In this document: piece by piece, positions 1-64,000 of the stretch
How the letters are laid out: every line of letters begins with the position of its first letter
Position numbering within the stretch: the stretch's first letter is position 1
Source: Psammoneis japonica
Taxonomy: Eukaryota
NCBI GenBank assembly: GCA_008632985.1
Contig: QPGO01000083.1
Coordinates: 285,075-349,074 of the forward strand
Reading direction: 5' to 3'
DNA length: 64,000 bases
The notes under the pieces: generated by a model
What the model was told of the DNA's origin: nothing
Seen by the model: only the letters and a program-made list of their open reading frames with translations
Database searches by the model: none
Program-made: the position numbers and the translations under genes

Positions 1-250
1 TTTGCACAGACACATGCTGCTCCAGAGCATGTGTCTGTGCATTTGTGCAGCTTTTGTGCAAGTTGAATTGCAGAGGGATGTTGTTAGACACAAAACATTT
101 GTCATGCCTGCCAAATTGATGGACAACCATTGGAGGCACATTTTGCTGGTGCAAACGTGCAGAATTTCACACAGCTGCACAGATGGTCTGCCTCTGGAGA
201 AGGTCTGTGCAGGTGAGAGTGCACAGGAGGTCTCTGGAGGGGGTCTGTGC
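1..250 (+). repeat. Hypermutated copy of the dispersed hairpin-bearing repeat at 22371-22630
   Basis: Colinear by eye with 22371-22630 (tttgcacaga..tccagagc.., cagctgcacagatggtct, ctctggag..tctgtgca). TA and CG of the other copy are replaced here by TG/CA. Confidence 0.8.
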
Positions 251-915
251 ACAAGTGGGGACACAGGTCATGGGGTCTGTGGCGCAATCCTGAAAAGAAG
301 TTGGCTGCTTCTGACGCGCCTCCTCGACAGCGACAGATCAGAGCTCTTGACAGCTTGTCCAGCTTTGGACATGACAGCTCCAAGTTTCCACATTTTTTGT
401 GAACTCTTTCTGATGCTGTGCCCATCACTTGGCCTTGTTGTTGGATTGCCATGGCTGTCTGCTGCAGAAGTGGCATTTTTGTTGAGGAAATCTGTCCCAG
501 GGATGAGATGGCTCATGTGTGGCGAGGGAGACCCTGTGCAGAACAAAACAACAATGAGGAAAGACACTGCACATGTGAGTTTTCAAGAATGTAAACATGT
601 GAGGCCTCAATGAAACACACAGTGTGAATGGTGATGCACAAGGCTCGTCAATGGACAGCTGGGTGATGATGTTGTCAGCACAAACCTTGACAAGATTTTT
701 CACCATCAGCTGCCCATGTGAACCTGTGTGTTCTCGAGCTGTCACATGCCTTGTGCCATGACGTGTGATGTTCCATTGAGATTTCACAACAAAACACTTC
801 AGAGACGACCACATTTTTGAAATCGGTGAAACGCCATTGCCTCTGTGTTATTTTGATCCGCGAGCCAGAAAACACTCCCCAAAATCCAAAATTGCTCTAT
901 CGGGTGCAGAGCAAA

Positions 916-2529
916 ATGTCCTGGGTTGTACCAGGCCACGTAGAAAATGAACGGGCTGAGAACTCCGGTAGTATCTTACCCATCATAATATCCCCCAAAG
1001 TGAGGCAAGATCCAACCATGATGTCAAGCCAAGAACGTGCGATCCACATGTGTGAAGTATGTGGGAGACCACTTGGGTGGATTGAAAATGCCGGTGTCCC
1101 CCTTGCTGTCGGTGTGAGTCTTGACCCTGTCGGATCAACGAATGTGTGCGCCGCTTGCGGTCATCATTACAACGAATTCTCGTCGCCAGAACCACAAGCA
1201 ACTCGTCTGGTTGCCTGTTGTCTTGCACGCGATTGGGATGAAGCGCTTGAATGCGTAACTTCTGCACCGCACGCAGCGAAATGCGTTTCAAGTTTCGACG
1301 GCCGAACTCCGATCCAAATGGCAATCTTTCACCGAGCCCCGCTAGCTCTTATTCGAGCTCTTGTCAGCGCTTGGCCGGAGTGTTACGTTGTCGATGAAAA
1401 CGACGTCGACCCTGACCCCCTCCCTTATGTAATCTCCAAATTTGAACTCTCTGAATATACTTACAATTTGATGGAGATTTTTGTTGAGGCCGATAACAAC
1501 GCCATTCTCAACGCATGGTACTTGAGGATAACTCCTACAGGGTATTTCTGTCGAGAGTTTTCTGAAAAGCTTAAAGAGGCGTCTGGGCTTCCAGCATCAC
1601 TCTCCATGAATGATGTTCTGGCCTATCACAATGAAGAAAATGGAATTGATGCAGGCGAGATTGAACTTGCTTTTCGGCACCTCACGTTACTTGTCAAGGC
1701 GGAATACCATGGGTCCATCCATGTTGACGATTTTTCTCTCGTGCATGCTGTTGCTGGTTGCCGCGATCCGTTCCTTCGGCCAGCGGGCTTGTTGGACCTT
1801 GCCATTCGTTTCCATCGACAAGAGCTTGAACAAGTGGATTTGCATGGAAACTCTCCGCTCCATGTCGCTTCATCTACCACTAACCGTAACAAGAACGAAC
1901 ATGTTGATTTCCAGATTTTCCAGATTCCAGAGTACATTTATGATTTGTTTTGCAGCAAGATTGATGAATATGGGCTTTTCTGTGATTTTGAAGGTTACCG
2001 CCATGTGAATTGCCGTTGTTTCAATCATTGCGAGTGCAGGTGTTCCAAAAAGACGGACGACATGGATTGCACGAAATGCTCTGACAAGAATTACAAAGAA
2101 ACAGAGTGCACCTGCTTCGAGCGCTATGCTTCTGGTCGTAAAATCTTCGATAGATACTTTTTTCCAAAGATGAGCAATGAGCACCGATTGGACAAAGAAT
2201 CTGAGATTCAAATGCTTGCAGAGGCATGTCCCCGCTCAGCCGGCCTCTATAACAATCGTGGGGAGCTCCCCATCCATTGCGCCATTGCGTGTGGGAAGGT
2301 TTGGGATGGAGGAATCAATCATCTTGTCAAAGCATTCCCACAGTCTTTGGCGTTGAAGCACCAGGGCTTGTACCCATTTGCGCTTGCGGCTCTGGGTGAG
2401 ACTTCGGATCTCGACACGATTCTAGAATTATTACTCGCTGATCCTTCTCTGGTCAAGTGTGCAGTGCCCCACTCTGGTGACGCTATTTCTCCACAAAAGC
2501 GCTCGAGCAAGAAACGCGAGTACGAATGA
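916..2529 (+). CDS. Ankyrin-repeat-like protein with N-terminal CxxC pairs and a Cys-rich insert
   Basis: Long ORF (817..2529, first ATG at 916). Ankyrin-like motifs GRTPIQMAI, GNSPLHVAS, GELPIHCAI and C-terminal LYPFALAA..LDTILELL. Normal dinucleotide composition. Confidence 0.7.
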   Translation: MSWVVPGHVENERAENSGSILPIIISPKVRQDPTMMSSQERAIHMCEVCGRPLGWIENAGVPLAVGVSLDPVGSTNVCAACGHHYNEFSSPEPQATRLVACCLARDWDEALECVTSAPHAAKCVSSFDGRTPIQMAIFHRAPLALIRALVSAWPECYVVDENDVDPDPLPYVISKFELSEYTYNLMEIFVEADNNAILNAWYLRITPTGYFCREFSEKLKEASGLPASLSMNDVLAYHNEENGIDAGEIELAFRHLTLLVKAEYHGSIHVDDFSLVHAVAGCRDPFLRPAGLLDLAIRFHRQELEQVDLHGNSPLHVASSTTNRNKNEHVDFQIFQIPEYIYDLFCSKIDEYGLFCDFEGYRHVNCRCFNHCECRCSKKTDDMDCTKCSDKNYKETECTCFERYASGRKIFDRYFFPKMSNEHRLDKESEIQMLAEACPRSAGLYNNRGELPIHCAIACGKVWDGGINHLVKAFPQSLALKHQGLYPFALAALGETSDLDTILELLLADPSLVKCAVPHSGDAISPQKRSSKKREYE

Positions 2530-2801
2530 GTCGTCCGGATGAAATAGACCACATTTGATTCATAGCTTTATAGTAAAAAGATATTGCTTCGTGATAAATT
2601 TGATATGCTGCAGAAATAGTCAACCATAGCTTATCTTAAACCCAGTGTTTCCAGTTTCTAATCAGGGTCTGGGAAGCACCATGAACACCAACGGCTTTAC
2701 CGAAAAAATGATGAGTTAATTACCAACGATGATTGGCTCTTTTTGTCTAAAACAAAACTGCCCCGGAGAGCAAGCTAGGCAGTTATCAAAAACTTTCAAC
2801 T

Positions 2802-4151
2802 CTACACAAACCGCTCTTGTCGTACAAATCCCGCTTGATGTTGTCGCCGTTCGTCGGCATGGGTGGCTGCTGCTACGGCGGCTCCGGTTGCGGCCGAGAC
2901 ACCCGACAGACCCGCCAAGGCTGTTGTTTTGATAACATTGACAATGATGCGACAAGTCAAAACCGCAGGTGTCACGAGCTCCCCCACGGCAGAAACCACG
3001 GGAGCCGTGACGCGTGCCGTCGATTGACCAATGCCGGTAGACATCCAAATGTCGGTCGGAAGCATTGCAAGATTGACGACACCATCCACCACATTTTGGC
3101 GTTCAATCACAAACACGGCATTCCGATGTAGTCGCATTGTAGCTTTCCTACCAGACTTTGGCAACGTGTACTCTAGCAATAAATGAGAACCACAAACATC
3201 CATGACTCGAAATGGCGACATGGGAGGTACGAGGGGAGTCAGGCCATTGTGCGTAGGCGATCGCCGAGCAAAGGCCTCCATGGCGACCCAATCATTATGA
3301 CGAGGCTCTAGTCCATATGGAGTATAAGAAACCAGTACTCGGACACGACCTTTTATACAGGATTCTTCTTGCTCTCGTTGTTGTTTTTCAGCCTCTCGAA
3401 GTGCAGCCGCCTTGGGATCGTGTTCCTGCAGGGCAGCCATGATGTCATCCTCGTCTACATTCTTTTTCAACTCCAGTGGAATCCATGCTTCCATGACACT
3501 GACTTGCGGGCTGCCATCTAGAGTCGTTCCTAGACAGAGTGACGAAATATCAAGTGATCCCGTTCCCAATAAACGCTCATCGGGAGACGGCACTCCCACA
3601 GGAATTACGTTTTCGGCCGCACTCACATCCTCATCCATGCGCACCTGAAGCAAAATTGGCATTCCATCTCTTGGCATACTTCCCTTGCGGAGTGGCAATT
3701 CAAACTCACACGATTGCCATACGGGATTATCATTTTGGGAAATCACCGGTGATTGTACCACATCGCTCTGAGGAGTCCATCCCACAACTCTCGGTTTGGC
3801 TCGTTTCTTTTGATTCAAATCCGCAATGCTTTCCTTGACTTCATTTTCTTCAAACGCCAATCCAAACTGAGCAAAACTCGAAATGGGTCCATGTGCTTTT
3901 GACAGACCCAAATGTTTCACGGGTCCCAGTGCAAGAGCGCTCCAATACGAACGTTTGAGTTCTGCAGCTTCGAGCAATTGAATGCGAAACTTTCCAATCA
4001 AACCCTTTTGATGGTGCAACAACCGATACGGATTGTCTCGAAAAGCAGACGACTGAGTCCATGTAATCTTATCAGGCTGAGAATGAGTCGATTGACGAGC
4101 CCGAGTGGCTTCGTACGTGTTGTCTTGGTGATGCTGTTGCGGCGTCGTCAT
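2802..4151 (-). CDS. C2-domain-like protein, copy A (449 aa)
   Basis: Intact ORF with C2-like segments (FRIQLLEAAELK, SPVISQNDNPVW, LQVRMDED, LLGTGSLDIS, GRVRVLVSYTP). Near-identical to 17122..18471. Confidence 0.75.
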   Translation of the reverse strand: MTTPQQHHQDNTYEATRARQSTHSQPDKITWTQSSAFRDNPYRLLHHQKGLIGKFRIQLLEAAELKRSYWSALALGPVKHLGLSKAHGPISSFAQFGLAFEENEVKESIADLNQKKRAKPRVVGWTPQSDVVQSPVISQNDNPVWQSCEFELPLRKGSMPRDGMPILLQVRMDEDVSAAENVIPVGVPSPDERLLGTGSLDISSLCLGTTLDGSPQVSVMEAWIPLELKKNVDEDDIMAALQEHDPKAAALREAEKQQREQEESCIKGRVRVLVSYTPYGLEPRHNDWVAMEAFARRSPTHNGLTPLVPPMSPFRVMDVCGSHLLLEYTLPKSGRKATMRLHRNAVFVIERQNVVDGVVNLAMLPTDIWMSTGIGQSTARVTAPVVSAVGELVTPAVLTCRIIVNVIKTTALAGLSGVSAATGAAVAAATHADERRQHQAGFVRQERFV

Positions 4152-5949
4152 GGTTGCTTTTTACTTTTTATTGCGTTTCTGCATGCTGGACGGCGATTTT
4201 GGAAGCGTCATCGCGAGCGCGCTTTACGACGCGCATACAGTCATCAATAGTTCTGCACGGCGGCGCGCGCATGTTTTCTGTGCTGTGCTGCGCTGTCTAA
4301 GGCATGGGCCAGCTCTCCAGCTAGCTAGGAGAGGCTCCAGCTAGCAGAGCAGCTCTAGCTGCTTCTAGTTGGCCATCTACACAAGCGTCACATTTGGGAC
4401 AAATGTGATTTCCGCATGATGTTCCAATCCCAAACACCACACTCCTCGCACCCAACAAGCTCCCAGAGATGGAGACGAGCCGGGCGGGGCAAGACTGGCC
4501 TGCGAGTGTTGAGCTTCTTCTTCTGTTGGATCTTCTGGGGGAGGGTGCCTTCAGGCCGAGACAACCAGCCATGGTCTTTGCCATCTGTGACTGATCTTGT
4601 TCTGGTTTGTCCTTTCCTCGCTTGTTTTCCAGCTTTGTTGAGACAGGAACCCTGGTCAGCCAACGTGGCTGGGTCGTGTCAAAGCTTCAGAAAAGATGCT
4701 CATTTGTGTTCTTCTCTCTCCCATCATGTCCAATCACTTTGCTTCTTGCCTCAACAATGAGTTGTTTGTCAACCTTGCTTGTCAACTTGAAACTGATGTG
4801 GTGTCACCTTTCTCCTCGGAATCTCCGTCTTCACCCTCATCTCAGACCCCTCCCTCCAGCCAGGGTCATCAGGGGGGTCATGCAGCCTTGAGCCCCGCCT
4901 CAGAGGGCTCAAGCCTTGGAGGTGGTGTGTGGGGCACCCATGCATGAGTGTGCAAAAATTTGGAGTTGGTGGATTTCTGAAGTGTCACTGCAGTCGTGCA
5001 TGCAAACATGCATCGGAAGTCAAACTCATCTGCTCTGTTTCAGGCTGATGCACTGCTTCAATGATGACAATGACCGACGATCCATCCATCAATCACATCC
5101 ATTTAATTTGATTTGACAAACACTCACACAGTGACCCCAATGTGAACGTTGACACTGCAGCTCTCCAGCTTGAACCCATCACGCTGTGTTGACCCCACAC
5201 AATGGGGCCTGCAAAGCCTCAGCCTTGCCACCAAAGCACTCGATGATGCACCTCTTCAGATGAGAATCAAGTCCATTTTTTGCAAAGTTAAAAGTCACTG
5301 CAGAAGAGGGACAAATATTTTTCTGTTTTTCTTGGTGCTGGCCCACACAGTTCTGCACACAAATGATGACTCCACATCAAGAAAGATTGCTGTTTTGACA
5401 AATGCATGAAAGGAGGTGAGCACCATGATGCTTCTGTCAACAATTTCCACATCAACAAACATCAGAACAGATGAAAATGACACTGGAGAGTTGACCCTTG
5501 CCACTGGTGCAAAGAAAACCCCAACAGCATTCCAAGAAAACCAGCAAATTCTGCTCCAAGCTTGGCTGGCCATGGAGCACCCACAACAAAAACTTGAGTG
5601 CAAAACCACAATGCTGGCTCCACTCATTCCAATGCTTGTGTCATGTCCTTCCTTGTCAGTGCAAAAGATCAGGCTGCACACCAAACTTTTGTGGAAGAAG
5701 ATGTGTGAGAAATGCCAAAGAAGAAGGTGTGAAAGTGGCACCCAGCACCACTGAGGTGGTCAACAGCAAAAGGAAAATGGAGGAGCTGGTGAAAGAGGAG
5801 TTGGTGCAACCCAGGAGCTTGTCCCAAGCACTGTCAAGGTGACTTGGTGAGGAGGCAGGCAAGCCAGGATTTGTGCTGGGGACAGAGGAGTCCATGTGAC
5901 CTGGAAGCTTGTCCCAAGCACTGCTGAGGTGAACCTTGGTGAGGAGGTT

Positions 5950-7950
5950 GTCAGGGGCAGGCAAGCCAGGTGCAAGGCGGGGGGGGGGGTCGCTGCAACA
6001 TCAATGGCTGGGAAGTGGTGTGCAGATGGGGTTGCATGAGGTGGGGGTGGAGTCAGGGGTGAGTTGAGCACCAACGTCAGCTGGGTGCTTCTTTGAGGGG
6101 TGGTTGGGAAGTGGGCCTGCAGGTTTGAGCAGGACATCTGTTGGGAACAGCGTGGGCCTGGGAGAGGGCTGAGGTCAGTGATGGTGGTGCAAACAGCATC
6201 TTGGATTTGGCTGGATGGCAGGGTCTTGAGAAGGCATGGCCACCAAAGGGGTTGAGGGCACAGGAGCCACACAGGCATGTAGAGCATTGAAGGTTGAAGG
6301 GGACAACAGGAAGGTGGAGCTTGCGCTGAAGGAGAAGGGCAAGTTGGGAGGATGAGAGGGTCCTTGGGAAAGGGAGTGGAGGCACAGGCTGGTGAGAGGG
6401 GAGAGAGCAAGGAGGGTGGAACTTGCTTGAGGTCTGGGCAACTGTGGCAGAGCAGAGTGTTTGGTTTGTTGTGGTGGAAGTGGGTGCACTGGGTCAGGCC
6501 TCAAAAGCTGACCAGGAGAGGGGTTGGAAAGATGAGGAGCCAAGCCAGAAGAGGGAGGGGGTGAGGTGGCAGAATGCGGTGCAGAGGCAGAGGGTGGGGT
6601 GAGAGTTAGACCAACAGGCCAAGGGACCAGGCCATGTGGGCAGGAGGGTGGGTGTTGTTGGCTGCCAAAGGATGTGCCATGCCTGGCCAGTTGGAAAGAG
6701 CAGGCAAGGGAGATGAGAAGGGAGGGAATGGGTGCAGCAAAGAGATGCTGCAGCAGCTGACATCATGGAGGGAGGCTGGGAGATGGGCGATGAGCTGGAC
6801 GGTGGTGATGGGAAGTGGGGGAGGGATGTGGTGGTGAGGCAGTGAGGTGGGAGAGGAAGCAAAGGGAGTGGCCAGCTGCAGTGTCAGTGAAGGGTGAGGC
6901 CCAATGGAAGAGGTTGGGTGTGTCATTGAATGATGAGCAAAGGCAGCAGACATGTTTGGAGAGGAGGCAAGTGATGATGGGATGGAACGTTGGTGAAAGA
7001 GTGTGCTCTGGGTTTGTTTGTCAGTGAGTTGGGTCTTGAGGTGGCAAAGGTCTGAGGCAAAGGAAGCAGCTTTGTGTCAGACAAAAAATTGGAGGCAAAA
7101 TCAGGGGAACCTGCAGGTTTGCTGAGGAGTTGAATGCCTGTGGTGACTTTGGGGTGGAAGCTGGGTTGGTGGTGGGATTGAAAAGGGCAAGGGCATTGGA
7201 GAGGGAGGCAGCAGCATCAGGGGGGAGAGTGAGGGTGAAGAGCCAGTGGCAGAGCTGAGAATCTTCTTCTTGGCATGGCTGAGTGTGGTGCCATGCAAGG
7301 TGCCAGGATGGACAGTTGGTGCAGGAGCCAAGGGATGATGGAGCAGGGGAGGAAAATGTGGGTGTCATCAAGATGCTCAAGAGGTGGTGGACTTGGAGTG
7401 GGGAGGGAGATGGAGCTTCAGCTGTTGGTTGAGTGTGATGAGGACTCCGGCCAAGCCCAGGCAGGCAAAGGTGGGAGTGAGGGGACAGCCTTGGGCAATG
7501 CCTTCAGGTTGCACAAAGGAGGGCCGCCAGCGCTGGTGGTCATGGTGTTGTCAGACATTGGGCTGTTGGTGTGCCATGCTGAAGAAGAGGAGGAGAGGGT
7601 GGTGCTGAGGGGAGGAAAAGAGCATGTCATGTCAGACATCACAGGGGCTTGTTGAGTTGGTTTGCATGGCTCCAGAAGGACTGCTTTTTGGTGGAGGGCA
7701 CATCTGGATGGGGAGAGGCATTGTTCCATGTTGGCACAGATGGCATGGATCAGAAAGTCCATGATGCTGTGGATGCTGACACCAAATTGGCCAGAGCAGA
7801 GCAGGTCAGCAGCAAAGGTGGTGATGAAGAGAAGGTGTGCAACAAGGGTGCCTGTGACATGGCAAAAGAAAGTGCCAACACTGAGATTGTGAACTGGGTG
7901 GCCATGATCAAGCCCCGCCTCACGCTTTGCGGCACTGGCTCTGTTGCCAG
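5950..7950 (-). mobile_element. Degenerate non-LTR retrotransposon with RT, zinc knuckle and restriction-like endonuclease (CRE/R2-type architecture)
   Basis: Minus-strand fragments in the expected order: LSVGTFF..GQFGVSI..MDFLIH (RT N-part), EGIAQGCPLTP (~7475-7505), EHLDDTHIF (YxDD with Y->H, ~7352-7378), CLCGSCALNPFGGHAFS (zinc knuckle, ~6225-6280), PADV (~6073-6085) and AIDV (~5995-6010). Many frameshifts. Confidence 0.7.
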
Positions 7951-9399
7951 TCACTTTGGAACAAGGACGTCACAATCAGGTGATGTCCTGACCGGCCAGT
8001 CCTTGTTCCTCTTCTGCCATGCTGTTTCAGTGTGCTGGAAGTGTGGGTCAGTCGGCACCAGCACAACTGGCAATGGAGTGATGGCACTTAAATTAGATCT
8101 TTTTTTTTTTTTGCCAACACTGATGTGCAGGCCAGAGCTCAGAAAGGTTGGGTGGGTCATTGTGGAGGGTTGGTCTGAGAAGACGGAGACTTGGAGTGGT
8201 TGGAAGAGGCACTGGCTTGCTGAAAGGCAAGGACTGACTAAATGCACAGTGTGCATTTTTGAGTTTTTGGGGCTCATTTTGTGCCAAATGTGCAAAAATG
8301 GGCCAATGTGTAGAAACACACTGGGGTTCTACGTGGCTCACATTGAAGGGTTGCAACACACCAGTGATGAGCTGGCAACTGCACCAGAAGTGAACAGAAA
8401 CAAGCAACAATCACAAAACTGACTGTTGCACACACCAACAGCAGTCACCTGCTCAAGCAAGTGACAATGCTTGCTGTTCATTTGTTCAGACGTGCGGATC
8501 TCAAAAATGTTGTGCAGGATCTCATGCTGCAAGCTTTCGAGAATCCTTTTCAACTGAGAATGCACACACTTCACAGATGCGCTTGAGACTTGATCCAACA
8601 CTGCCAAATGCACAGCAAGCTTCAGACAAGCAAATCCACAGTGGGGGTGAAAAGGAGGGCAATGATGAAAGTGGGGCAAAGTGCAACAGGGCAGGTGGAG
8701 TGCCACTGCAACAATGGTGCAAGTGGTGAGGAAGAGTCAGGAAGCCATTTTGGAAGGTGTGGAGAAGTGCAGCTTGGGTGGGGAGCAAACCCCGCCAGCA
8801 TTTTCAAAAAGGTTGCTGTCATCATTGTGCTCTTTTTTGGCAAAAAAGCATCTTGAAATCTGGGGGGGGGGCAGAGGTGGAGGGTTGAGCCAGCAAGAAA
8901 TTGTGCAGAAACATGCTGCGCTGGCTGCAAAGATTTCTGTGTGACACAAAATTGCCCACACATCTGCTCACACCTCTTGTCTCAAGAACGCTGGGCAGTG
9001 TCCCCTGCTTGCACATGCAGGGGTTTTGTTCACTCAAGAGCTTCCTCAGCAATGACCTGCTGCAGAAGCAGTGTTGCATGCTGCATGCCAGCAAGAGCCA
9101 CTGCAAGCTCACTTCTTCTTTTCGTTGACATTGCCTTGTGCATCAATGACTTGCAGAAAGCAAGCTTTGCTTGCTGCCTGTGCTGCCCACCCCCTTGCAG
9201 CTCTTTTCTTGCTGGAGCTCCTTCTTCTCCTGATTCCCTGGATGAGCAAGTCCAGCTTGAGGTCTGGTTTTTTGTGGTTTGTGCACCGCAGCCCACAAGA
9301 GAGCTTTGCTGGAAGCACATCAGCCACAAAGAGAGAAGCAGGAGGCAAAAAGAGCAAAAGAGGGCAGTCATCTGGCAATTGGCAGACACTGGCAATTTT

Positions 9400-10450
9400 C
9401 TTTTGAAGCATCATTGTGGCAGCCATGCATGGGAAGTTGTCCCACACTGTCTGCTGGATGCCCCGTGGGATGCCTTGCCAGTCTCTCTGTTCCAACCACA
9501 TCACAGACCATGCTTGAACCTGGTTTGTGGTGCTTCAAAAGGTGCGCTCTCCCCAAGACCTCAACTCCAGAGAGCTGTTTTTGGGGTGTGTGTGGCACAG
9601 CTGAGCTGCAGGTTGCATGTGCTGACATTGAGAGAACATGGCACCCCAGTCAAATGCAGGGTTTAAAATGATGCCTGATTGCCACTGTGTTCAAACCCAT
9701 TCTCTGTTTTGACTCTGGTGGACTCTGATTTGGTTCATTTTTGAGTGCACCACCACTCCTTTTTTGTGGCCTTGCTGTTGACAGTGCTCCTTGCTTTCCT
9801 GCTGCTGCATGGTCCCTGTGCCAATGTTGAGGCCAGACACTTCATCCAGATGGGTTCCAGTCACTCAAATCTTTTTGTGGTCGTGCTCCACATGATGCGT
9901 GGCCACCACCTTGTGCTTGGGGTGTCCCGAGCAAGACTGATGAAGTCCTCCATGCATTTCACTCTGCACAGGAGAGGGGAGCATTGCCACTGTGAAGTGC
10001 AGTGTAACAGAGGAGGAGAGTGTCAGCAATGTTGATGATGCAGATGTGGTGAAGAGCATCAGCCAGGCTGCTGGTGCAGTGGCGATGGTGGTGGTGGGTG
10101 GGGGGCACAGCTGGGGACGCGGCATGGATTGGAAGAGGCAGAGAGCATGTGCTGAGGTGGACAGGATGCTGCGGTCACTGGTTTGCAGTGCTTGCAGCAT
10201 TGTGGAGGTGTCGCAGCATGGCAACTGCAAGATGTTGCCCCAATCATGGCAGTGTGCAGTGACGCACGATCTCCCTTTCTTGGGGTCATTTCAGAGACAC
10301 AAGCACTGCAAAAGAGGGGCAGAGCTGTGTAGACAGCACACCTGCTGGCATGAAAGTGGCAAAGTGCCTCCAGCACTCCGGCTTTTTTGTTGGACAGCTG
10401 TTGAGATGTTGCAAAAGGAGGAGGAGGAGCTTGGCTGCAAGTGCCAACGA
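9400..10450 (-). pseudogene. Decayed, hypermutated copy of the 3' end and downstream flank of the 12340..16938 gene
   Basis: Colinear with ~12100-13130, e.g. gaggtggACAggatgctgcggtcActgg (10154) vs gaggtggATAggatgctgcggtcGctgg (12858), and gattGccactgtgttcaa vs gattAccactgttttcaa. Confidence 0.8.
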
Positions 10451-18471: not shown

Positions 18472-18626
18472 TTTTGAAAGTTTTTGATAACTGCCTAGCT
18501 TGCGCTCCGGGGCAGTTTTGTTTTAGACAAAAAGAGCCAACCATCGTCGTTATTAACTCATCATTTTTCGGTAAGGCCGTTGGTGTTCATGTTGCCAAAC
18601 CTTGATTAGAACCGGAATCATTGTAT

Positions 18627-47362: not shown

Positions 47363-47399
47363 ATATGCGCAAGCAGGGCGTCATCCAGGCATTTTAAGA

Positions 47400-49340: not shown

Positions 49341-49675
49341 TCTTAGCCACGCACGGTCAGACGGGATAGACATCTTTCATATTGCTACTACAATCCGTGC
49401 ACGACCAAGCCCGTATGTAGAAATCTACTTTAATTAGTACGGGACACACTCCAACGGATCATTTTTCAATTTTTTGCGCAAACTTCAACGTGGAAGCCAC
49501 CAACCACAAAAAAACAAACAGGCGAACGGCACGACCAACAGGCGAAACAAATAACAAATAACAACACAATCATTGGTTTTTTTGAGGGGGCACGTGGCCG
49601 ACAGTTGTTGAACTTCGCTGCAACAAAAGCAGACTGCGAGACCAATAGATCGTCATTTCCAATCTCTCTTTTGCC

Positions 49676-52928
<3,253 letters not shown>

Positions 52929-53690: not shown

Positions 53691-53966
53691 TGATAGAAAT
53701 TGAAGGCAAATGGCAAGAATTCAAACAATAACTCCTTGCTGCTGTCTAAATAGCAGATGAGTCTCCGCTCAGAGACCGTCACAGGAGCCGAAGGACGTGC
53801 AAGTCGGCATAATCGGGCTACTGTCATTATTCTTGTGAGCCTTGTGGCTCGAAAGCAAACCACATCGCGCGTGAACGCGCGGAACTAAAGCACACAAAAC
53901 TGTGCACGGTAAACTAAACAGCGCGCGATGCTTCGCGCGCACCTAAATCCTGTTCAAATCCTGTCA
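53691..53966 (-). repeat. 3' LTR of copia copy 2
   Basis: Direct repeat of 60684-60959, preceded (element sense) by PPT-like ggggag. Confidence 0.97.
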
Positions 53967-56900
53967 CTCCCCAGTTTGCTTGAGGAGCCACAGAAACAGA
54001 TTCGACTTCGGATGGAATGAAGTTCCAGAACATGAGGGGGCGGAGAAGGTCCCAGATTTGGGAGTGACCCCAATGCTTGCTGAGAATGTCAGCAGGGTTG
54101 CGGGAGCCTTCGATGAAGTGGAACTCAAGGTGACCAGAGGCAATTGCCTCACGCACACGGTGGAATGACAGTGCGGTGTGTCGCTTGTGTAACTTGGAGT
54201 GCGGGATGGTGGCACTGTCTGCAACCGACTTGTTGTCACCGAACATGTGACCAACGTTGCGGATCGGGACGCCAAGGCAGCGCAGGGTGATGCGCAGGTC
54301 GACAATCTGCTCAACACAAGTCCTTGCGGCAACAAATTCAGACCCGCAGGTCGCAGTCTCCACGGTGGCTTGTTTCTCAGAGAACCAATCAGCCGGGAAT
54401 TTGTTGAGGAAGTGGAGCATTCCCATGACAGAGCGTCCGGTGAGCATGCAATGGCACAAGAAAAAACAATCTGCTCAACACAAGTCCTTGCGGCAACAAA
54501 TTCAGACCCGCAGGTCGCAGTCTCCACGGTGGCTTGTTTCTTAGAGAACCAATCAGCCGGGAATTTGTTGAGGAAGTGGAGCATTCCCATGACAGAGCGT
54601 CCGGTGAGCATGCAATGGTGCAAGTTTGCATCGACGTAGTGGGTGGCAGTGACGAACTTGCCAAGGGGCGGTGGAGCGTCCTTCGGGATCATCTCTTCTG
54701 CTTCACCACACACGGAATGCATCCATTCATGGGCCGGAGCAGGGAGATCCGAATGGTCGGGCTCTTCCGTGCGAACGCGGAGAGCACCGTGTCGCATCTT
54801 GGAGAGGCACCCACAGACGCGCTTGGCACGATCCAAGTGGCCTTGACGGGGCGCAGCTCGGAAGCTAGAGAGTGACATGACGGCCGTGGCAATGTCAATT
54901 CGACCAAGGGACACTGCCCATTGGAGTGAACCAACAAGAGACTGGAACTTGTGGATGCCATCGGGTCCCAGCAGTTCGGAAGTGTCCAGTTCGGGGTGGT
55001 CACCCTTCTCTAGAGGTGACAGGGCGTTGGTGGCAGGTTTCTCCCCAAACAGTCGGGCACAGCTGTCGACCATGCGCTCGATGTACTTGCGCGGAGACAG
55101 GCACAAGGTTCCGTCGGGTTCCCGGGAAAAGTCGCAACCCAGATGGAACTCAATGGGTCCCGCACCCTTGAGCTTGAACTTGTGCTTTTCCGTGAGGGTG
55201 TCGACGAAAGATTGAGGGTCCTTCATGGCAATGGCGAGGTCATCCACATAAACGGCAATGCATTCACAGTGGTCGCCGTTCCTGCACATCCAAATGTGGG
55301 GTTCGGCGCGGCAGGGGAAGAAGCCTTCAGCTCGCAGGCAGTCGGCGAAGCGCTCGTGCCAGCGGAGACCGGAGCTGCGCAGTCCATGCAGTGCCTTGTG
55401 GATGACAAGGATGTGTCCTTCGAGTTTGCCGAACTCGGGTCCAGCTGCAATGTAAAGCTTCTCCTTGGTGGTGGCTTCAAGGTGGGCATTGCCAATGTCG
55501 GTGGCCCATGTCTCCAACTCGTTGAGTTCGGCCAGGAAAATCATCAGCCGAAGGCCACGGAGGGAGACTGCTCCGGAGTGGACACTGTCGACAGGCACGT
55601 CCGTGAGGTGCCCGTCGGCTACGAGTCGTGCCTTGTGGCGACCGTCGTGTTTCACGTCGCACACCAGGTGCACTTGGATCTTCTTGTGTCCCGCAGGAGG
55701 AGTGGAAGACTTGAAGGGCCCGCAGTCATGGAAGACTTCGTACTCGTCGAGTTGGTCCATCTCGAGATTAGTTGCGTCTCCCCACTTGCGGTTGCCGTTG
55801 CGTTCGTCCAGTGACATGGCATGTTTGCAGTTCCGGGGAACTTCGTGTCCACACTTGCAGCGAGGTGCAGTGCGGAAGGAGCGAAGCTTGGCTTGGTTGG
55901 CCATGCGAAATGGCTTCTTTTGGCGCCTCGCGATGGTGCGGAACCGCTTCCAGCCATCCGTGTCGAGGAGTCCGTTCTCTCGTGCATAGATGGCACAGGT
56001 GACGGGGTCGTCCTTGGCGATGATGGCAAGAGGCTCGGACGTGATCTCCCCACTTTCCCATTCAAGCATGATGTTGTAGCTGGAGCCTTTCCAGGTTGGG
56101 TCGTGAGGCTTCAGAGGTCCTTCGTGTGACACGATGCGTCGAAATTTCCAAACAGTGGTGTCTTCGTCTTCTTGCTCAATGTGATTCATGATGTCATTGC
56201 AGGCAAGGACTTCCTCGCATTCGTCATTGTTGACAGAGCAGACGAACTTAGTGAGCTCGGGATTGCCGTTCACTTTCCATTCGTGGTCTTCGACGGCCTT
56301 GACGATGCGAGCTCTGTGGCGTTGTCCGTCCTCTTGTGGCTGCATGAGGAAGGCACGTCCAATGATGTCTTGCGGATCGAAAACTGGCATCTTGGGTGTC
56401 CTGATCTCCCCATCAGGAGAGTCGACGGGGTTGTCGTCATGGCGAGATTTGATGATGGGTTCAGGTGGCTCCCCATCAGGAGGATCAAGACGCAGGTTTC
56501 GGACGGCAGGATCGGGGGTGGCGGAGCGGACGTTGGACCGGCAGAGGATCTTCTGATTCTCATCAGATAGAATCTTGAAGGTCATCTGGTGGCCGACGTG
56601 CTCAGCAATGCCAACGAAGCGTCCACGCAACTCACGGGATTCGGACGGCCAATCGGAGTCATCGAGGTGGAAGCACACGGGTTCCCACCAGTGAAAGCGA
56701 AGCAATGGGCTGATGTCCGGGGTGGAGCCAGTGAGAGTCTCAAGGGGCATGTGCCAGTGGAGACGTGGGGACGCTGCATGGTTGAGCATGAAGCACACGC
56801 ACATGAGCGCCAGCAGCCATGCATGGGCGGGCGAACCAAAACGATCCATGACAGTGTTCGCCATGCGCTTCACGGTCTGGTGTCGACGCTCGGCAAAGTT

Positions 56901-59744
56901 TTGGTGTTGCTGGTGAGGCTCACTTTGCCAGCTAGAGATGAAGAGGGCGCGCAGGATCCCGAGCACTTTGTTGCTGATCTCAACTTGAGCACGGTCGCTA
57001 ATGAGTTTGGATGGGGCACCACGTTCACGGATCTGATCCTCGAGTGTGTTGACAAACTCTTTGTCCGTCTCAGTGCCGCAGACGTCAGTGACGGTAGACT
57101 CGGTGCCAACAAACAGTTGGGCGCTGGTGCAACCAGAGTCGACGGCCGGGGTGTCGGCACAAACGGTGTCAGTGGCGACAGGCTCGTTGCGGCGGTGCAC
57201 ATTAAGGGCGGGGTTGGGTGATTTGTGGGCCTTGCGAAGGTGTGCACCGGCGGGCATGCGGGCGCACTGCGTGGTGCAGTCAAAAGTACGACGGACCGCA
57301 TCGGCAGGTGGGAAGCCAAAGCAAGGCCGAAGAGACTCGAAGGGGGGGTCCTTGGGCTGTACAGTGCGCTCCGGAGGTGGAACATCATCGCCCTGGGGGC
57401 CAATCGCATGCAGATGACACTCGTAGAACACGTCGTCGTTCGGAATGAGGTGATCATCGAGGGCGGACGCGTGATCGGCAGACAAGGAAGCGGACATGAT
57501 GGTCTCGTTGACAACGACACGATGACGGCAGTTGCCGCATTCGTCAAATAGGTTGGCAGTGGGATCGTCCTGCAGGTCAGAGATCGCGTCGCACCACTGG
57601 TCGTCGTCAGTGACAGAGTGATCGAGGACGGAAGGGTCCCATGTGTCATCACCGGTGAGGATGACATGGGGCAGGGTGTCCCATTCGGCGTCAGTGCAAG
57701 GTCGCATGGCAACACAAGGCAGGCCAGCCTTGATGTCAATGGGGATGACACAGCCATCAGGAGTGGCAACACGTTGCAAGCCGTTGGGCACCTTGACAGA
57801 GCGATCGTTGACATCCTGTTTGTGCCATTCGAGCTGGCCGCAGGAATGGATGGTCTTGCCCTTGCCCGTGCATGCGCACTGATGGAGTGTGGCGATGACG
57901 GGACCACGCTGGGTCTCAATGACGGCACCAGCGGTGACAATGGGGATGTCCACCAATTGATGATCGTCAATGCCCTGAACGTCGACTTGGCGAGAGGTGC
58001 GTGCAATGACGCGAACGTCGTCGCCAGCAATGCCGCCGTTGGCCCCACGATCGACTAGAGCGCCAGTGCGTGTGGAGCGATGAGCAGAAGCAGAGTGAAT
58101 GACATTGTGGTTGTTGACGCGGCGGCAAGTGCGACCGTCAAGTTCCATGTCATCTGCAGAAGCTGGTGGGGTAGAGGAAGCGGCGGATGGCCCCGGTCGA
58201 CTGGCATTGGGGGCTTGGTTAGGAGACAACAGACGTTGCAGATCACCGGGTGGCAGTGGCTTGCACTTGGTGAGGTGCGCCAGGATGGGATCATCCGAAG
58301 TGGCGTCCACATGTGGAGCGGAGTCACCAGAGTCAGCAGGAGTCGTGTTGGACAAGTTGACATCACCGTCACTCCCAAGGCGTTGGTCATGAAGGTTGGC
58401 CGTAACAGACTCATGGCAGTTGCTGGCTCGCGGGTTGCAGGGAGGTGGACGAGAATGCTCAAGGATGATCGCCTTGGAGGAATCGGGCAACGAATCCCAG
58501 AGCCGTTGGTGGTCGGGAGGGAGACGTCTCCATTGGACACCGGCGAGGCTGGGACCGCGGGTGCAGGCAGCATTGGCTTGAAGGACGTCAACGTTGCTGT
58601 CAATGTCGTAGAACACATCGTCGGACGGTTCCTCGGAGTGGACGTCGTGTGCGTGTGTGGCGCATCGGGGAGCTCGAGGTGTCGTCTTGGGTTGAAATGT
58701 GCTGTCGCACTGAGCTGCGGCGGAGAGGAGCAAGCCACAGTGTTGATCGCATGTGAGGCTCTTGCCACTCTGTGTACGATGCTGATCAGCTTGGTTCTTG
58801 ACAGCACGGAGTTCCTCGACAGGGTGCACGGCATTCTCGAGCATGACGCGCTTCTGTCCTTCAGAGAAGTGGTCACTGGCCGGGATGAGTGCCTCGCACT
58901 TGCGCAACTGATCTTGCCAATGAAGGATGAACCCGTGGGTCAGACCTTTCCAAGTGCCATCACCAAGACACGCGGTGGTGAGGCACGTGAGCAGGGTGGA
59001 GGACTCGACAGATGCGCGGGTGGAGGCAAGCGCGTGCTCAGACAAGGAGCGGCAGACGGTCTGTGCGTCAGAAGACCCCACATTTTCGCGAATGAGAGCC
59101 TTGCCCTTGTCGGTGAGAAGGATGCGTTCGAAGACGGCGAACATGCACTTTTGCTGTTCAGCAAAGAGCAGTTTGTCTTCGGGGCTGGTCGGTTTGTACG
59201 ACGAGTCTAGAATGCACTTGACGTCTTGGGCACGGGCTTGTGCCACAAGTGAGGTGTGCCAAGTGTGCCACTGCTTGTCAGATTTGAGAGCCGTGAAAGT
59301 GGGATCACGCTTGATGCCTCGCTTGAAGTCCCGCACCGGGTCGCGTGCCTTGGTCGAGTTGGTGACATGTGGAGGTGCAAGGGGTGAGCTGCCGATGGAC
59401 ACAGAAGACATGTGGTCGGGGCTGAGGCGGCAGGCAAGGAACTCGTCATGCGTGAACAAAGAGGAGTCGTTGGCAACGTCAAGACCTTTGTGTGCTTTGA
59501 CAATGTACAGACTGACTGGTGCTGCTAACATGTTCTCATAACCACGGGGCAAAGGGATTGCATTGGCGCCGTTGTCGCACTCAAGCGAGTCGATTTGGGA
59601 CGGCATGAATGTGAACAGTTCCTGATGCGAGTCTGTGCCGTCTTGGGCCAAAGCCAAACGAAGAGGACTCCCAGCACCTTGGGCAAGCACGGTTCCAACC
59701 ACGTGCTCGAAACCATCGGTTTGTTGCTGACGAGTGAGAACCAT
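53914..59744 (-). pseudogene. gag-pol polyprotein of copia copy 2, Tyr-depleted and frameshifted in RNase H
   Basis: ORF from ATG 59744. Conserved Tyr replaced by Cys/His. A tandem duplication with 164-bp period (54302-54624) shifts the frame. Confidence 0.9.
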
Positions 59745-60683
59745 GGTGGACAAAGGTGGTGTCAGGACAATCAATTCTGGTTGGGAAGCGAAGGTAGACT
59801 CGAAACTTGGGTGAGAGTGGACTTGACTTGAAATGGACTTGACTTGAAATCTTGAACTGTCTTAAAATCAGAAGTCGCCGGGCTTTGTTGTCCCGTTCGT
59901 TGTCAAGTGCTAAACTTCCCATCCGGTCCGTAGAGTTGTGCCGGCACGTCCGAACCCGCAGCTGGTGGCGCTTTGGGTTGCTTGCGAGTGGAGCAGCGGG
60001 TTGCAAACCCCTGCAGGCAAGCTGACTGGAGGTGGACAAGACCCCCGAACCGTTCTCATTTTGTGTCGGTTGGATTTCCCGATCAGGCTGGCCAGTTGAC
60101 GCAGGCGTTGGGCGCTGTGGACGAACGAACAAACGCGGGAAAGCACCCTCGCCCCAACGCAGGCTGCAATCACGGCCACCTGCTCTCACAGTCGTCCTCG
60201 TGGACCTGGCAGAACTGTAGAGCACCAGCAGTCCGGGGCAGATCAGGTGCAATGGACTCGGTGTGCTTGTAGAGTGGCAGCAAAACCGCAGTCCGAAGAG
60301 TGGACAAAGGTTCTTGGCCGTGAAGACATGTACACACACACATGTCTTCAGCGACTAAGATCCTTGAACATGTGGGGTTCTTGACCGTTAACCGAGGAAC
60401 AGGTATATCAAGGGATGTTGATCAAGGATAGACTTGGATATGACCGTTGAATGTAAGTCTTCAGCGATCAAAGGTAGTGCAATCAATCCAGATGTCCAGC
60501 GGCAAGGAGACTTGACGGTGACGTTAACTTCCTGCCGATGCCCTGGTGTTGAATGCGCGTAGACTTGCCGATGTATGTAGAACACATACGGAGGTCCACG
60601 TAGAATTGAAATAGCGTCGTTGGTAAATCAACGACGACGATGGCGGTTGCTCAATGGGTTGACAATGAGCAAGACTGTTAATC

Positions 60684-60959
60684 TGATAGAAATTGAAGGC
60701 AAATGGCAAGAATTCAAACAACAACTCCTTACTGCTGTCTAAATGGCAGATGAGTCTCCGCTCAGAGACCGTTGCAGGAGCCGAAGGACGTGTAAGTCGG
60801 TGTGATCGGGCTACTGTCATCATTCTTGTGAGCCTTGTGGCTCGAAAGCAAACTACATCGCGCGTGAACGCGCGGAACTAAAGCACACAAAACTGTGCAC
60901 GGTAAACTAAACAGCGCGCGATGCTTCGCGCGCACCTAAATCCTGTTCAAATCCTGTCA
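60684..60959 (-). repeat. 5' LTR of copia copy 2
   Basis: Direct repeat of 53691-53966, followed (element sense) by gattaacagtc. Confidence 0.97.
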
Positions 60960-60964
60960 TCTTA

Positions 60965-63900
60965 CGTGCTCTGGTGGCACTTTGACAGCGACTCCCTCCA
61001 ACACTGACGTGCTGAGTTTCTCACAAAAAAACACACACAAGCAACCATGAGCAGCCCTGTGAATGCTGCAAGCAGCTTGGTGTCTCCCATGTGGTGTGGC
61101 TGGGCTTGTCCATTCTTCGAAGCACAGCAGCTGTGTTTGCCATGTGACAAGCATCCGGTCGGTTGCTGTTTCGACTTTAAACTGTGGTGTCTGACAGGCA
61201 TTGTTCTTGAACAGTGAATTAAACAGCTGTCAAATTGTCCCTGTCACCCTTTGTGGGCACTGGGGAATGTGGGTCTGCTGCTGTGGGGTCGGTCCTGATC
61301 AACTTTTCTGCCGCACTCAACCGGTGCACTGGAAATGTGGGTCAGCTGGCGCCGGCACAGCCAACAACAGCTCAGTGGAACTTAAAACACAGATTTGGTT
61401 TTTCTTTAATTGACAATCTGTGCACATTGTCAGGAGTTGTGTGTGTCCACCCCACTGAGAAACTGTCATCGAACAGGTTGATGGGCATGCAAAGATGACC
61501 GGCAGACACTTCAACAGTGTCGCCCCATTGCTTCAGCTTGACCTTGCTCTGTTGTTGACATGGATTTGTTTTCTTGTGCAGAGCTTTCATCCTGCCATCA
61601 TCCATGGGCAGTCAACACATGAGATCAATGGAAAACACAGAGAACGTCCCTGCCAAGCAGAGATTCGCTGGTGTGGTGCTGCAGATGATGGTTTGGCAGT
61701 GAGCGCAACAGGTTTGTGGAGCTGTTGGAACAAGCAAGAGCCAGAAAAGTTGTAGGTTGATGTTGGTGAGATGGTGCTTCATGAAGACTGGCCTCAGAAA
61801 CTCCAAGAGGAGCACAACAAATGCGCTGGAAATGCCAGCCAGCTGTGCAACAACCCCCAGCTGTGTCCCCAGAGAGTGCACTTGACTGTTTTCAGTCAGC
61901 CCGGCTTTTCCATTGCATCGTTCTGAGATGCTTGAATGTGGAGCTTGAACCGCTGGGTTGTCCTCAGAAAAATGCTTCTGATCCAGCATTCGTTGATGGC
62001 TTGCATTGTTGCCATGTGTTTCATGATGAGGTCCAAGACCCAAGTTGACATTTCTCAATGCTTCCTTGTGGCACATCTCTGAGCTTCCTCTTCCACATTC
62101 AGAGCTCAATGGAGCTGCATTTCTGAAACTCCCTGAGTTGCACCATGCCAGCACTGCTGAGTTCCTGCAATCCAGCAACATTTGTCCATCGCAGCAGGCT
62201 TGGGAATGTTTCTCTCTTCACCCCAATGATGGTGCTGGATGCAGAGCACACAGCAGTGGTGTGCGCATTGGCTGAAACCAGCAGTGCATGAAGCACAACA
62301 GCTTTCAATCACTCCTCCCACAATGCGTCCAAGATTGTGCCCATCTTTTGCAGAGGTGGTTGGCTGAGTCGTTTTTTTCTGCCAAACATCTTTTTTTTTT
62401 GCTGGTGGCCTTGCTGCTGAGAATGGTGGGCAGATGATGCACAAAGCGGCAGCCACGCTAACTCAACAAGCACGACTTAGTTTCAGCACTGCAAATTCGC
62501 CGTTAAAATGCCGTGGCTGGAAACTGCAGAAACCAACACACCATGGCGACTCTACGGTCGCTGTTTCCTCAACGGCATCACCTTCAAGAGCCACAACAAA
62601 GAACAACATTTCACATCTCGTGAACTTGTGTGTGGCAGAATTGACACATGCAAGTGCAATGGGCTCATTGTTGACTCATGCAGTCAAAAAACGATGGGAA
62701 AAAAATTGAACATTTTTCAGCTGTTTTCACTGCGATCAATCAACATCAAAGCACAGCAAGGCACACACATGTGAAATGAATTGCACGACATTGATGTGTG
62801 TCAGTGTTGTGGTGAGTTCATGGCTGTTGATGGAGTGCATTGCATTCGCGGTCGCCATTGTCGTTGCGTTTCAACAAGTCGTGGAAAATTTGAAATCCAG
62901 AACATTTGTGTGTGCAGGCATGTTGTCACTTGTGGGATTTAAACATTGGACATTGCTCTGTGCACAGAGCATTTGCATTTTTCACTTGTTGCAATCTCAT
63001 GTGTGCACAAGGTGTTGGCATTGATTGCCCAATGTGACACACATCAATGTCCAAATGTAAACATCAGACTTGCCGCCAGCAAAAAAAAAGGTGGGGGTGG
63101 TTGTTGGCTTGACTTGCAACACCATAAAAACAAGGCACCGATGGAGTTCTTTTCACTCCCCTTTCTCCACCCTCTCTTTCTGATTCTTGTTCATTGTTGC
63201 CAATTGTTTGAATGGCATGCAAAGTTTTGTCTTGTCATCTGAGAATGCAATCGCGTGAAGCTTCAATTTTTCAGTCCAGAGCCCATTGGAGGGCCCTCCC
63301 GATGGTCTTCTGGCACTTGCTTTCACCAATGTAGCCATGGCACTTGTGAACAAAAGAATCAGCAAGTTCAGGGCTTTCAATTGCAATGACTTCAAACTTG
63401 GCAAGAAACTTCCCCTGGAGCAAAGGTCACAGCACATTTTCAGCTCGCATTTCACAACTTCTCGTGCTCTCTTTTCTCTGAAAGAAATCCACAGTCATGA
63501 GATTCTCAAGTGGTTCGTGAATTTTCACTCGCGGGTCTCCAGCATCAATGGCAAAGAAGGAACCAGATGTTCCTTTGTCCCGGTTGAAACCTTGGACGAG
63601 ATGAGGTGCCTCTGCCTCAAGAGAGACAAAGCCTTTTGAAGGGCTCCAGTCCTGGGTGGGACTCTGTGTGCGGTGTGTGACATTTGGCATTTGGCGGGCC
63701 CACAGAATTCTGCGTGCGAGCTCCGCAACAAATTTGTCAAGCAATGAAAATGTAAATGATGACAGAAACATCCTTGCCACAACCGCCCCGCTCAAATCTG
63801 AATCTCTGTCATGCCAGTCTCTAGCTAGAGCAGAAGTGCTGTGGCATGTGCAATGCATGTGCGTTGTCAAACAGCTGCAATGGCCACCGCGACTGTCAAC

Positions 63901-64000
63901 ATTCTCAAGCAGCAGGGGAAGAAAGTGAAGTTTGGCAAAGTCGATGATGACGACATTGATTTTGGGTGCAAAGAGAAGAAATCGCGGCGGCGTTGGAATG
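60965..64000. other. TpA-depleted hypermutated block, possibly a decayed DNA transposon
   Basis: Near absence of TA. Shares repeats with ~8030-8105 (at ~61325-61405) and with 47790-47910. Minus-strand CCASCTAGFSQCAHHCCVL (~62245-62300) resembles a SWIM zinc finger, weak evidence. Confidence 0.7.

Follow-up and report, generated by a model that had tools for sequence, protein, structure and literature searches.

What has removed almost every TpA dinucleotide (TA) from about half of a 64,000-bp stretch of the Psammoneis japonica genome (contig QPGO01000083.1 of assembly GCA_008632985.1, positions 285,075 to 349,074; hereinafter the window), while sparing the genes in between? The depleted DNA includes two copies, A and B, of a Ty1/Copia long terminal repeat (LTR) retrotransposon. 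The best explanation overall, in which we have considerable confidence, is a host process that acts after integration and turns TpA into TpG or CpA within bounded domains of retrotransposons and their relics. Under this model, the conversion (A:T to G:C) would take place in chromosomal DNA and would be confined to sharply delimited domains made up of retrotransposons, their remains and fragments captured from genes; the two strands of the palindromic TpA would be struck about equally, each site would stop at TG or CA, and the outcome would be close to saturation. A second, slower process, the decay of CpG to TpG/CpA, would operate in the same domains and would account for the older blocks, in which TA and CG are both missing. 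A sequence-only reading of this stretch had proposed transposon-directed, TpA-specific A:T to G:C hypermutation, opposite in direction to the repeat-induced point mutation (RIP) of fungi, and the LTR pair of element B and the polarity of its tyrosine replacements support that core.

TA-depleted blocks and Copia elements

The window was segmented with a two-state hidden Markov model (HMM) on the TA positions alone, and statistics per 500 bp were computed alongside. Seven TA-depleted segments comprise 29,698 of the 64,000 bp (46%, in agreement with the earlier estimate of about half) and six segments are normal. Six of the seven blocks match the coordinates given in the sequence-only reading to within ~30 bp; the sixth block ends at 60217 rather than at 59780. 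The depleted compartment contains 140 TA and the normal one 1,392, with observed/expected (o/e) ratios of 0.08 and 0.59, respectively. The ratio for CG is lower in depleted than in normal DNA (0.56 vs 1.01), those for CA (1.66 vs 1.18) and TG (1.58 vs 1.21) are higher, and for the remaining 12 dinucleotides the gap between the compartments is at most 0.11, that is, only TA, CG, TG and CA are shifted. The block edges are sharp in all seven depleted segments. The normal segments show TA o/e of 0.50-0.64 and the neighboring genes are spared, as had been claimed for intact genes. The depleted segments, to which no strand is assigned, are as follows:

1-848: class-1 depleted block, TA o/e 0.04 (2 TA), CG o/e 0.26
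4379-10793: class-1 depleted block with no recognizable protein domain, TA o/e 0.04 (13 TA in 6,415 bp), CG o/e 0.16
22686-32316: composite depleted block, Copia copy A followed by unidentified depleted DNA, TA o/e 0.11
42524-44069: class-1 depleted block, TA o/e 0.06, CG o/e 0.28, with a run contig at ~58x word depth
47396-49343: class-1 depleted block, partly highly repeated, TA o/e 0.05, CG o/e 0.28
53945-60217: TA-depleted zone of element B as delimited by the HMM, TA-only class, CG o/e 0.88
60964-64000: class-1 depleted block adjoining element B, TA o/e 0.08, CG o/e 0.43

These blocks fall into two classes. Class 1 lacks both TA and CG (CG o/e 0.16-0.43), whereas the Copia interiors, with a GC content of 57% and CG o/e of ~0.88, have lost TA only. 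The Copia features are:

53691-60959, minus strand: element B, complete, with a 276-bp 5' LTR, leader, a 1,936-codon open reading frame (ORF) and, preceded by a polypurine stretch, a 3' LTR that is likewise 276 bp long
53691-53966, minus strand: 3' LTR of element B, termini TG..CA, 11 TA left
60684-60959, minus strand: 5' LTR of element B, 10 TA left
53686-53690, no strand: left copy of the 5-bp target-site duplication, identical 5-mers flanking the LTRs
60960-60964, no strand: right copy of the 5-bp target-site duplication, identical 5-mers flanking the LTRs
53964-59774, minus strand: gag-pol ORF of element B, open but hypermutated, with RVT_2, 0.67% Tyr and the YVDD motif kept
22895-28059, plus strand: copy A, 5'-truncated and frameshifted, with RVT_2 but without the 5' LTR, the leader and approximately the first 240 codons
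27784-28059, plus strand: 3' LTR of copy A, 3 TA left

A scan of 14 long ORFs of the window against Pfam yielded domains in six, two of which contain RVT_2, the Copia-type reverse transcriptase (25635-27836, plus strand, E = 2e-25; 53964-59774, minus strand, E = 7e-24). Element B combines the complete set of Ty1/Copia features, namely RVT_2 within a gag-pol ORF, TG..CA termini of the LTRs and a 5-bp target-site duplication, and its polyprotein has 1,240 homologs at E <= 1e-10. The two copies share 94.6% identity, their alignment of 5,165 bases containing 292 differences.

Near the 3' end of the ORF of element B, a 159-bp tandem duplication (54302-54460 and 54466-54624, 98% identity) repeats part of the C-terminal coding sequence. 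The family is highly abundant in run X1, a DNA run with contigs built from exact 31-letter words, where 12,395 contigs fall on 53341-60000. The summed word depth of X1 is ~70,000-99,000 over the Copia interior and 194,671 in the bin that contains the 3' LTR, compared with ~58 for single-copy sequence, and it is 51,642 at 47338-48004 and 65 at 48672-49338, within or near the partly repeated block 47396-49343. Summed word depth is not a copy number; if it is taken at face value, there would be many solo LTRs of this family. Run X3 (0.16 million letters, same sample) has almost none of the words sampled from positions 1-10000 and, within the stretch examined, yields contigs only over the Copia interior (54478-59499).

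Direction, specificity and targets of the change

The two LTRs of a single element are identical at integration. Those of element B now differ in 11 of 276 columns, making nine sites, and all of these differences are transitions of the type TA versus TG/CA or TG versus CA; there is no difference outside such sites, and none of the 20 CpGs has changed. The probability that chance alone would make all seven single changes of the TpA type is ~1e-8, and 3e-5 when only transitions are counted as possible. At one site, the three LTR copies have TATG, CACA and TGCA, as would result from independent hits on two adjacent TAs. The sequence-only reading had staked its proposal on a TpA-specific excess in the substitution spectrum, and such an excess is present, with 11 of 11 LTR columns at TA/TG/CA sites. 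Given that nine TA sites but no CpG changed in this pair, CpG decay is separable from the TpA process and slower.

The comparison of copies A and B leads in the same direction. Double differences at adjacent positions number 59, of which 51 have TG in one copy and CA in the other; the combination of TA with CG does not occur. Because only ~3 CpG double hits are expected by simple arithmetic, these doubles mark ancestral TAs that were hit independently in the two lineages. In addition, 25 sites are TA in one copy and TG or CA in the other, and 20 TA are common to both. Single differences between CG and TG/CA number 89, next to 324 shared CpGs, and the remainder (41 other transitions and 28 transversions) corresponds to a background divergence of ~1.3%.

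The polarity of the change is fixed by the encoded protein. Tyrosine makes up 2.9-5.0% of the polyprotein in 120 of 120 homologs among the matches listed, compared with 0.67% in element B, whereas cysteine in B reaches 3.6% against a homolog median of 1.0%, and histidine is also raised. In the 41 columns where at least 80% of 30 homologs have Tyr, element B has Cys in 21, His in eight, Phe in four, Pro in one and Tyr in seven. Thus, 34 of the 41 conserved tyrosines are lost, 29 of them to Cys or His, the replacements produced by TAY to TGY or CAY; other conserved residue types are retained at 72-100%.

Three depleted segments have normal counterparts in the window (no strand is assigned):

1-251: diverged copy of 22371-22629, detected by alignment, in depleted block 1-848
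10030-10441: diverged fragment of gene 12340-16938, detected by alignment and tblastn, in depleted block 4379-10793
30577-30968: fragment of gene 817-2529, detected by alignment and tblastn, in depleted block 22686-32316

In the three normal/depleted pairs, the normal copies contain 38 TA, of which 29 correspond to TG or CA in the depleted counterpart, two are unchanged and seven are otherwise changed, so that 29 of the 36 changed TA became TG or CA; the claim that TA gives way to TG or CA wherever a homolog exists is borne out to this extent. For the 50 CG of the normal copies, the corresponding figures are 32 converted to TG/CA and 11 unchanged. The parent genes of the block-resident fragments are intact and have kept their TA. 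Taken together, these comparisons demonstrate a real process that acts on DNA after integration, is specific for TpA and runs from TA to TG/CA.

Both strands are affected alike, with TG:CA ratios of 37:34 in copy A and 31:29 in element B, and a strand-run test for processive editing of one strand was not significant in either copy (z = 0.85 and -1.56 for A and B, respectively). A site is hit only once because, when converted, it is no longer a TpA; doubles from TA to CG are absent. The relative survival of TA, defined as the share of a context among the residual TA of depleted DNA divided by its share among the TA of normal DNA, is 0.04 for ATAC/GTAT, 0.10 for ATAT, 0.78 for GTAC, 1.93 for CTAG and 3.66 for TTAA. 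In 51 single conversions that could be polarized, the edited A is followed by C in 25 and by T in 12 (a pyrimidine in 37 of 51), compared with 20 in which C or T comes after the unedited A of the opposite strand. An A followed by a pyrimidine is present on one strand only at 37 sites, and at 27 of them this is the strand that underwent editing (p = 0.008). Only a rule on the 3' pyrimidine fits both analyses, given that a rule on the base 5' of the T would predict TTAA to be the most sensitive context whereas it is the most resistant one. The edited motif is thus preferentially T-A-Y or, in terms of thymine, R-T-A.

The process never turns a sense codon into a stop because the new C occurs in no stop codon and the new G following a T gives TGA only from TAA. 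The elements are therefore disabled by missense changes, such as Tyr to Cys or His, with their ORFs remaining open. Furthermore, the only stop left in TA-free DNA is TGA, which explains the many long ORFs without a family match in the depleted blocks (75 of at least 100 aa, both strands). Such DNA is a trap for gene prediction, with spurious long ORFs and dead elements that retain full-length frames.

The contents of the blocks are only in part those announced by the sequence-only reading, which had them hold transposons and duplicated fragments. RVT_2 is found in two blocks and diverged copies are present in three, but for the rest of the class-1 DNA, together with the adjoining unidentified depleted DNA, none of the 75 ORFs of at least 100 aa reaches the Pfam cut-off; two sub-threshold matches among them (E = 0.008 and 0.0099) were put down to chance. 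A tblastn search of the window with three Copia homologs and nine window proteins detected no further Copia remnant in the class-1 blocks and recovered only the two already known gene fragments. The class-1 blocks are only putative targets of a transposon-directed process.

The other genes with Pfam domains are all located in normal DNA and encode a P-type Ca-ATPase in two exons, an AAA protein and a reprolysin-like peptidase. The closest named relatives of the Ca-ATPase are those from oomycetes (63-65% identity) and centric diatoms (59-63%); other matches reach at most 70%, and none is near-identical. Its single 80-nt intron is skipped by a contig of run X2, which lacks 51871-51950, with GT..AG ends. 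Run X2 accordingly behaves like RNA; its contigs cover several normal segments, and it is blank over 42669-44002, 46671-49338 and most of 53341-60000, a gap that does not count as evidence on expression or silencing. A 449-codon gene of no known family is present as an inverted duplication (2635-4162 and 17111-18631; 95.4% DNA and 98.9% protein identity) with normal TA. Three sets of ~130-170-bp tandem repeats (72-82% identity), also with normal TA, occupy 20612-22134, directly upstream of the block that starts at 22686. The related sequences at 1-251 and 22371-22629 are nested palindromes, the former fully depleted of TA and CG and the latter normal, and may represent a foldback element or one resembling a miniature inverted-repeat transposable element. 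Finally, segment 44070-46700, scored as normal, is located between two depleted blocks and contains ORF 44410-45771, for which no homolog was found at E <= 1e-5 among 5,893 candidates; TA o/e is already 0.26-0.40 at 44001-45500.

Chemistry, targeting and alternative explanations

Within the model of a host process, the favored chemistry, to which we give slightly less than even odds, would be conversion of adenine to inosine through a TadA/ADAT-like deaminase with a preference for 5'-T-A-Y-3'; the T-A-Y context of the edited sites lends it indirect support. Inosine is read as G every time, whereas 5-hydroxymethyluracil (5hmU) forms its pair with A and has only a slight mutagenic effect. In tRNA, the deaminated A34 has U33 on its 5' side, and the substrate context of bacterial TadA is U-A-C-G, which resembles T-A-Y. 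A deaminase of this family, ADAT2, is reported to act on DNA in amphioxus (BjADAT2; PMC10354150).

The strongest competitor, albeit an unlikely one, retains the same process and targeting but places the chemistry on thymine: a TET/JBP-type dioxygenase would produce 5hmU at TpA, and mispairing or faulty repair would fix T to C. TpA being palindromic, the footprint would be identical, and there are precedents for the mark itself. In dinoflagellates, a TET/JBP homolog is reported to make 5hmU that silences transposable elements, and older work cited in the same article had T preferentially replaced in the dinucleotides TA and TC (PMC11572971); enrichment of 5hmU over repeats, including Copia elements, is described as well (PMC11071213). 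The base-resolution map of 5hmU in Breviolum given in the latter source shows no sequence motif (PMC11071213). In the window, TC is not depleted, with o/e of 1.05 in both compartments. The weak mutagenicity of 5hmU, compared with inosine, also speaks against the thymine route.

Could the depleted DNA simply be TA-poor by nature, through codon bias or avoidance of a TA-recognizing factor, without any hypermutation? In element B, the TA-poor zone and the ORF have almost the same extent, the tyrosine of YVDD and six other conserved tyrosines are kept, and 19 of 26 derived Tyr positions are identical in A and B, all of which would fit such a composition. Nevertheless, the differences within the LTR pair postdate insertion and concern TpA without exception, 34 of the 41 conserved tyrosines are gone, 51 TG-versus-CA doubles separate A from B, and non-coding blocks and gene fragments are depleted likewise. 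The Copia family as such is not intrinsically TA-poor because TA is ordinary (o/e 0.50-1.02) in 76 of 79 metagenomic loci whose products are related to the polyprotein. The other three have o/e of 0.41, 0.31 (locus L046, an intermediate case) and 0.02. The last of these, locus L044 (1-2766), retains 3 TA in 2,766 bp and encodes a Copia polyprotein that is 59% identical to that of the window, with 0.12% Tyr, a YVDD motif that has Cys instead of Tyr, and no more than two in-frame stops; judged by its sequence, it shows that the hypermutated state recurs in environmental DNA. An intrinsic composition is thus very improbable.

Even less room is left for a base-calling or assembly artefact, in which a modified base at TpA would be misread by a long-read platform and the true sequence would be TA. 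Run X1 contains 0.90 of the sampled 31-letter words of positions 1-10000, 64% of which is depleted, and a contig at word depth 57.8 covers 40001-43611, including the depleted DNA at 42524-43611. In this 1.1-kb single-copy block, 10 substitutions between the contig and the window are listed, one of which creates and one removes a TA. The depleted sequence is thus reproduced, free of TA, in exact-word contigs at ~58x, as the check proposed with the sequence-only reading would have it, although the platform of X1 is not on record. X1 excludes the artefact only if it consists of short or HiFi reads, which we infer from the uniform word depth of ~58, unlike that of noisy long reads. The artefact gains some color from the single-base indels that separate the window from the contigs of the runs over 40001-53271; 12 are itemized and 13 more counted in the 20 kb compared, and they suggest that the window comes from an imperfectly polished long-read assembly. 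On the other side, 24 substitutions are listed for 44070-46700 between the window and the contigs of X1 and X2, 11 of the TpA type and five of the CpG type, and in nine of the 11 the window has TA where the run has TG or CA, the opposite of what misreading would predict; these differences could reflect ongoing spread between sub-lines or assembly errors. Strand-dependent miscalls at a palindrome should, by our reasoning, mix TA, CG, TG and CA, and there is no excess of CG. Moreover, the unrelated metagenomic contig L044 is in the same state, and the comparable process in Bigelowiella natans, discussed below, was measured with Illumina data.

Editing at the RNA or cDNA stage before integration, by an ADAR-like enzyme or through reverse transcription errors, hardly comes into consideration. 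The best-identified targets are indeed retrotransposons, and ADARs favor U 5' of the edited A (bioRxiv 10.64898/2026.01.13.699255), but the LTRs of element B, a single integrated copy, are no longer alike at TpA sites, both strands are hit equally (TG:CA ~1:1), and fragments of ordinary genes and single-copy DNA unrelated to retroelements are also affected. A general bias of repair or recombination, be it GC-biased gene conversion among repeats or errors of the Pol-eta type at WA motifs, would push A:T to G:C, and repeats do recombine, but the idea can be set aside almost completely given that AA, TT and AT are unchanged (o/e in depleted/normal DNA of 1.17/1.16, 1.17/1.15 and 0.87/0.96, respectively), none of the 11 LTR differences is a transversion, and the 1.5-kb inverted duplicate with 95% identity has seven TpA-type events among 60 differences. 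The AA ratio and the lack of LTR transversions lead us to reject Pol-eta mutagenesis, which the sequence-only reading had listed as a candidate.

For a host process acting after integration, there is the additional question of how its targets are chosen. Targeting by a silencing domain, that is, a chromatin mark or small RNA, appears rather more probable to us than recognition of sequence duplication as such. Duplication alone is not the trigger because the inverted gene duplicate retains 44 and 45 TA in its two copies, with the few TpA-type events noted above, and the tandem repeats at 20612-22134 also belong to DNA of normal TA content. Neither does present copy number define the targets, as some depleted DNA is found at ordinary X1 word depth.

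Several observations weigh against the host-process model or against parts of it. First, the young element B is not uniformly affected: its interior contains 0.6 TA per 100 bp, and both LTRs together with 466 bp of the leader contain 3.6-4.3, with sharp changes of density at 53966/53967 and 60217/60218. On the leader side, the density is 0.9 at 59775-60217 and 4.3 at 60218-60683, so that the depletion stops 466 bp inside the 5' LTR, and this near-normal TA content is not what a uniform, domain-wide process predicts. LTRs are not immune in general, as that of copy A, with 3 TA left, was heavily hit. Second, copies A and B share the same derived residue at 19 conserved Tyr columns and differ at seven; either the outcomes are biased by context, with T-A-Y leading toward Cys, or the copies received some of their interior damage from a progenitor that was already mutated but still mobilized. 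Third, the class-1 blocks encode no recognizable transposon protein (0 of 75 ORFs). Fourth, none of the 14 long ORFs of the window contains a deaminase or TET/JBP domain, in keeping with the earlier remark that no candidate enzyme gene is visible here. Fifth, the palindromic nature of TpA makes adenine (T-A-Y) and thymine (R-T-A) editing equivalent in sequence alone. Sixth, run X1, with its unrecorded platform, possibly derives from the same sample as the assembly.

Relation to known systems and significance

The sequence-only reading considered the process undescribed, which no longer holds. A full-text literature search for TpA-directed hypermutation of repeats returned, besides papers on RIP, only a 2026 preprint on the chlorarachniophyte B. 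natans (Mettrop et al., bioRxiv 10.64898/2026.01.13.699255), which describes TpA to TpG/CpA hypermutation and proposes an enzyme of the same type, an ADAT2 homolog. In mutation-accumulation lines of that organism, 231 of 302 new nuclear mutations fell in an integrated giant virus and virophage, where nearly all were A to G or T to C and all were at TpA; there are also TpA-poor clusters rich in CpA and TpG, and reverse transcriptase and DDE domains are enriched among the TpA-poor coding sequences. The two cases share the almost exclusive A to G/T to C change at TpA in foreign or mobile DNA of an otherwise ordinary genome. Here, in contrast, the host is stramenopile-like, judged by its Ca-ATPase, which indicates a stramenopile, though not a diatom specifically, and by inference not B. 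natans; the targets are LTR retrotransposons and relics instead of integrated viruses, and the depletion is saturated (TA o/e 0.04-0.13, compared with a Rho of 0.45 in the B. natans virus region). The evidence also differs, being comparative in our case (LTR pairs, copies and homologs) as opposed to mutation-accumulation lines. The preference for T-A-Y and the CpG decay seen here do not appear in the main text of the preprint, as distinct from its supplements, and the words retrotransposon, LTR, diatom and stramenopile do not occur in it. In our view, the present case adds to the known footprint a further lineage, retrotransposons as targets, a saturated state and mechanistic detail.

RIP of ascomycete fungi is likewise a DNA-level, dinucleotide-specific transition hypermutation that occurs in blocks and inactivates transposons. 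However, RIP converts CpA to TpA, raises TA and AT and creates stops, whereas the process described here destroys TA and makes no stops from sense codons; RIP is triggered by duplication and mutates both copies, whereas here a 1.5-kb duplicate with 95% identity is untouched and only the block-resident copy of a pair is mutated. RIP was accordingly rejected as an explanation: TA is lost, with the polarity fixed by 29 replacements of Tyr by Cys or His, the duplicate is spared and the parent genes are intact. Deamination of 5-methylcytosine at CpG also yields TG and CA in transposon DNA and accounts for the loss of CG in class 1 and for the 89 differences of CG versus TG/CA between the Copia copies, but it cannot remove TA, and in the young LTR pair no CpG changed, as opposed to nine TA sites. 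TadA and ADAT2-ADAT3 resemble the putative editor in targeting A after U or T. APOBEC3 and ADAR of animals provide a parallel of deaminase-type editing, which we presume here, against retroelements with clustered transitions; the animal enzymes target cDNA or RNA prior to integration and do so with strand asymmetry, G to A in the case of APOBEC, whereas in the present case neither strand is spared and the LTRs become different once inserted.

If the footprint extends genome-wide, this would be the second known lineage, and by far the more heavily marked one, with programmed A:T to G:C editing of invading DNA. The observations extend the targets from integrated viruses to LTR retrotransposons, narrow the specificity of the enzyme to T-A-Y and turn LTR pairs into a built-in clock which shows that editing follows integration. 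With the footprint present in two distant lineages, the enzyme and its guide could be identifiable by phylogenetic profiling of genomes with and without it. It is conceivable, although we regard this as a doubtful extension of the sequence evidence, that stramenopiles, rhizarians and some uncultured organisms, such as the source of L044, share an ancient TadA/ADAT-derived T-A-Y editor that would be guided to silenced domains and would rewrite every TpA of transposons and integrated viruses. If so, transposon and virus proteins would be killed without a single stop codon being made, and such a natural adenine editor of double-stranded DNA would also be of interest to genome engineers.

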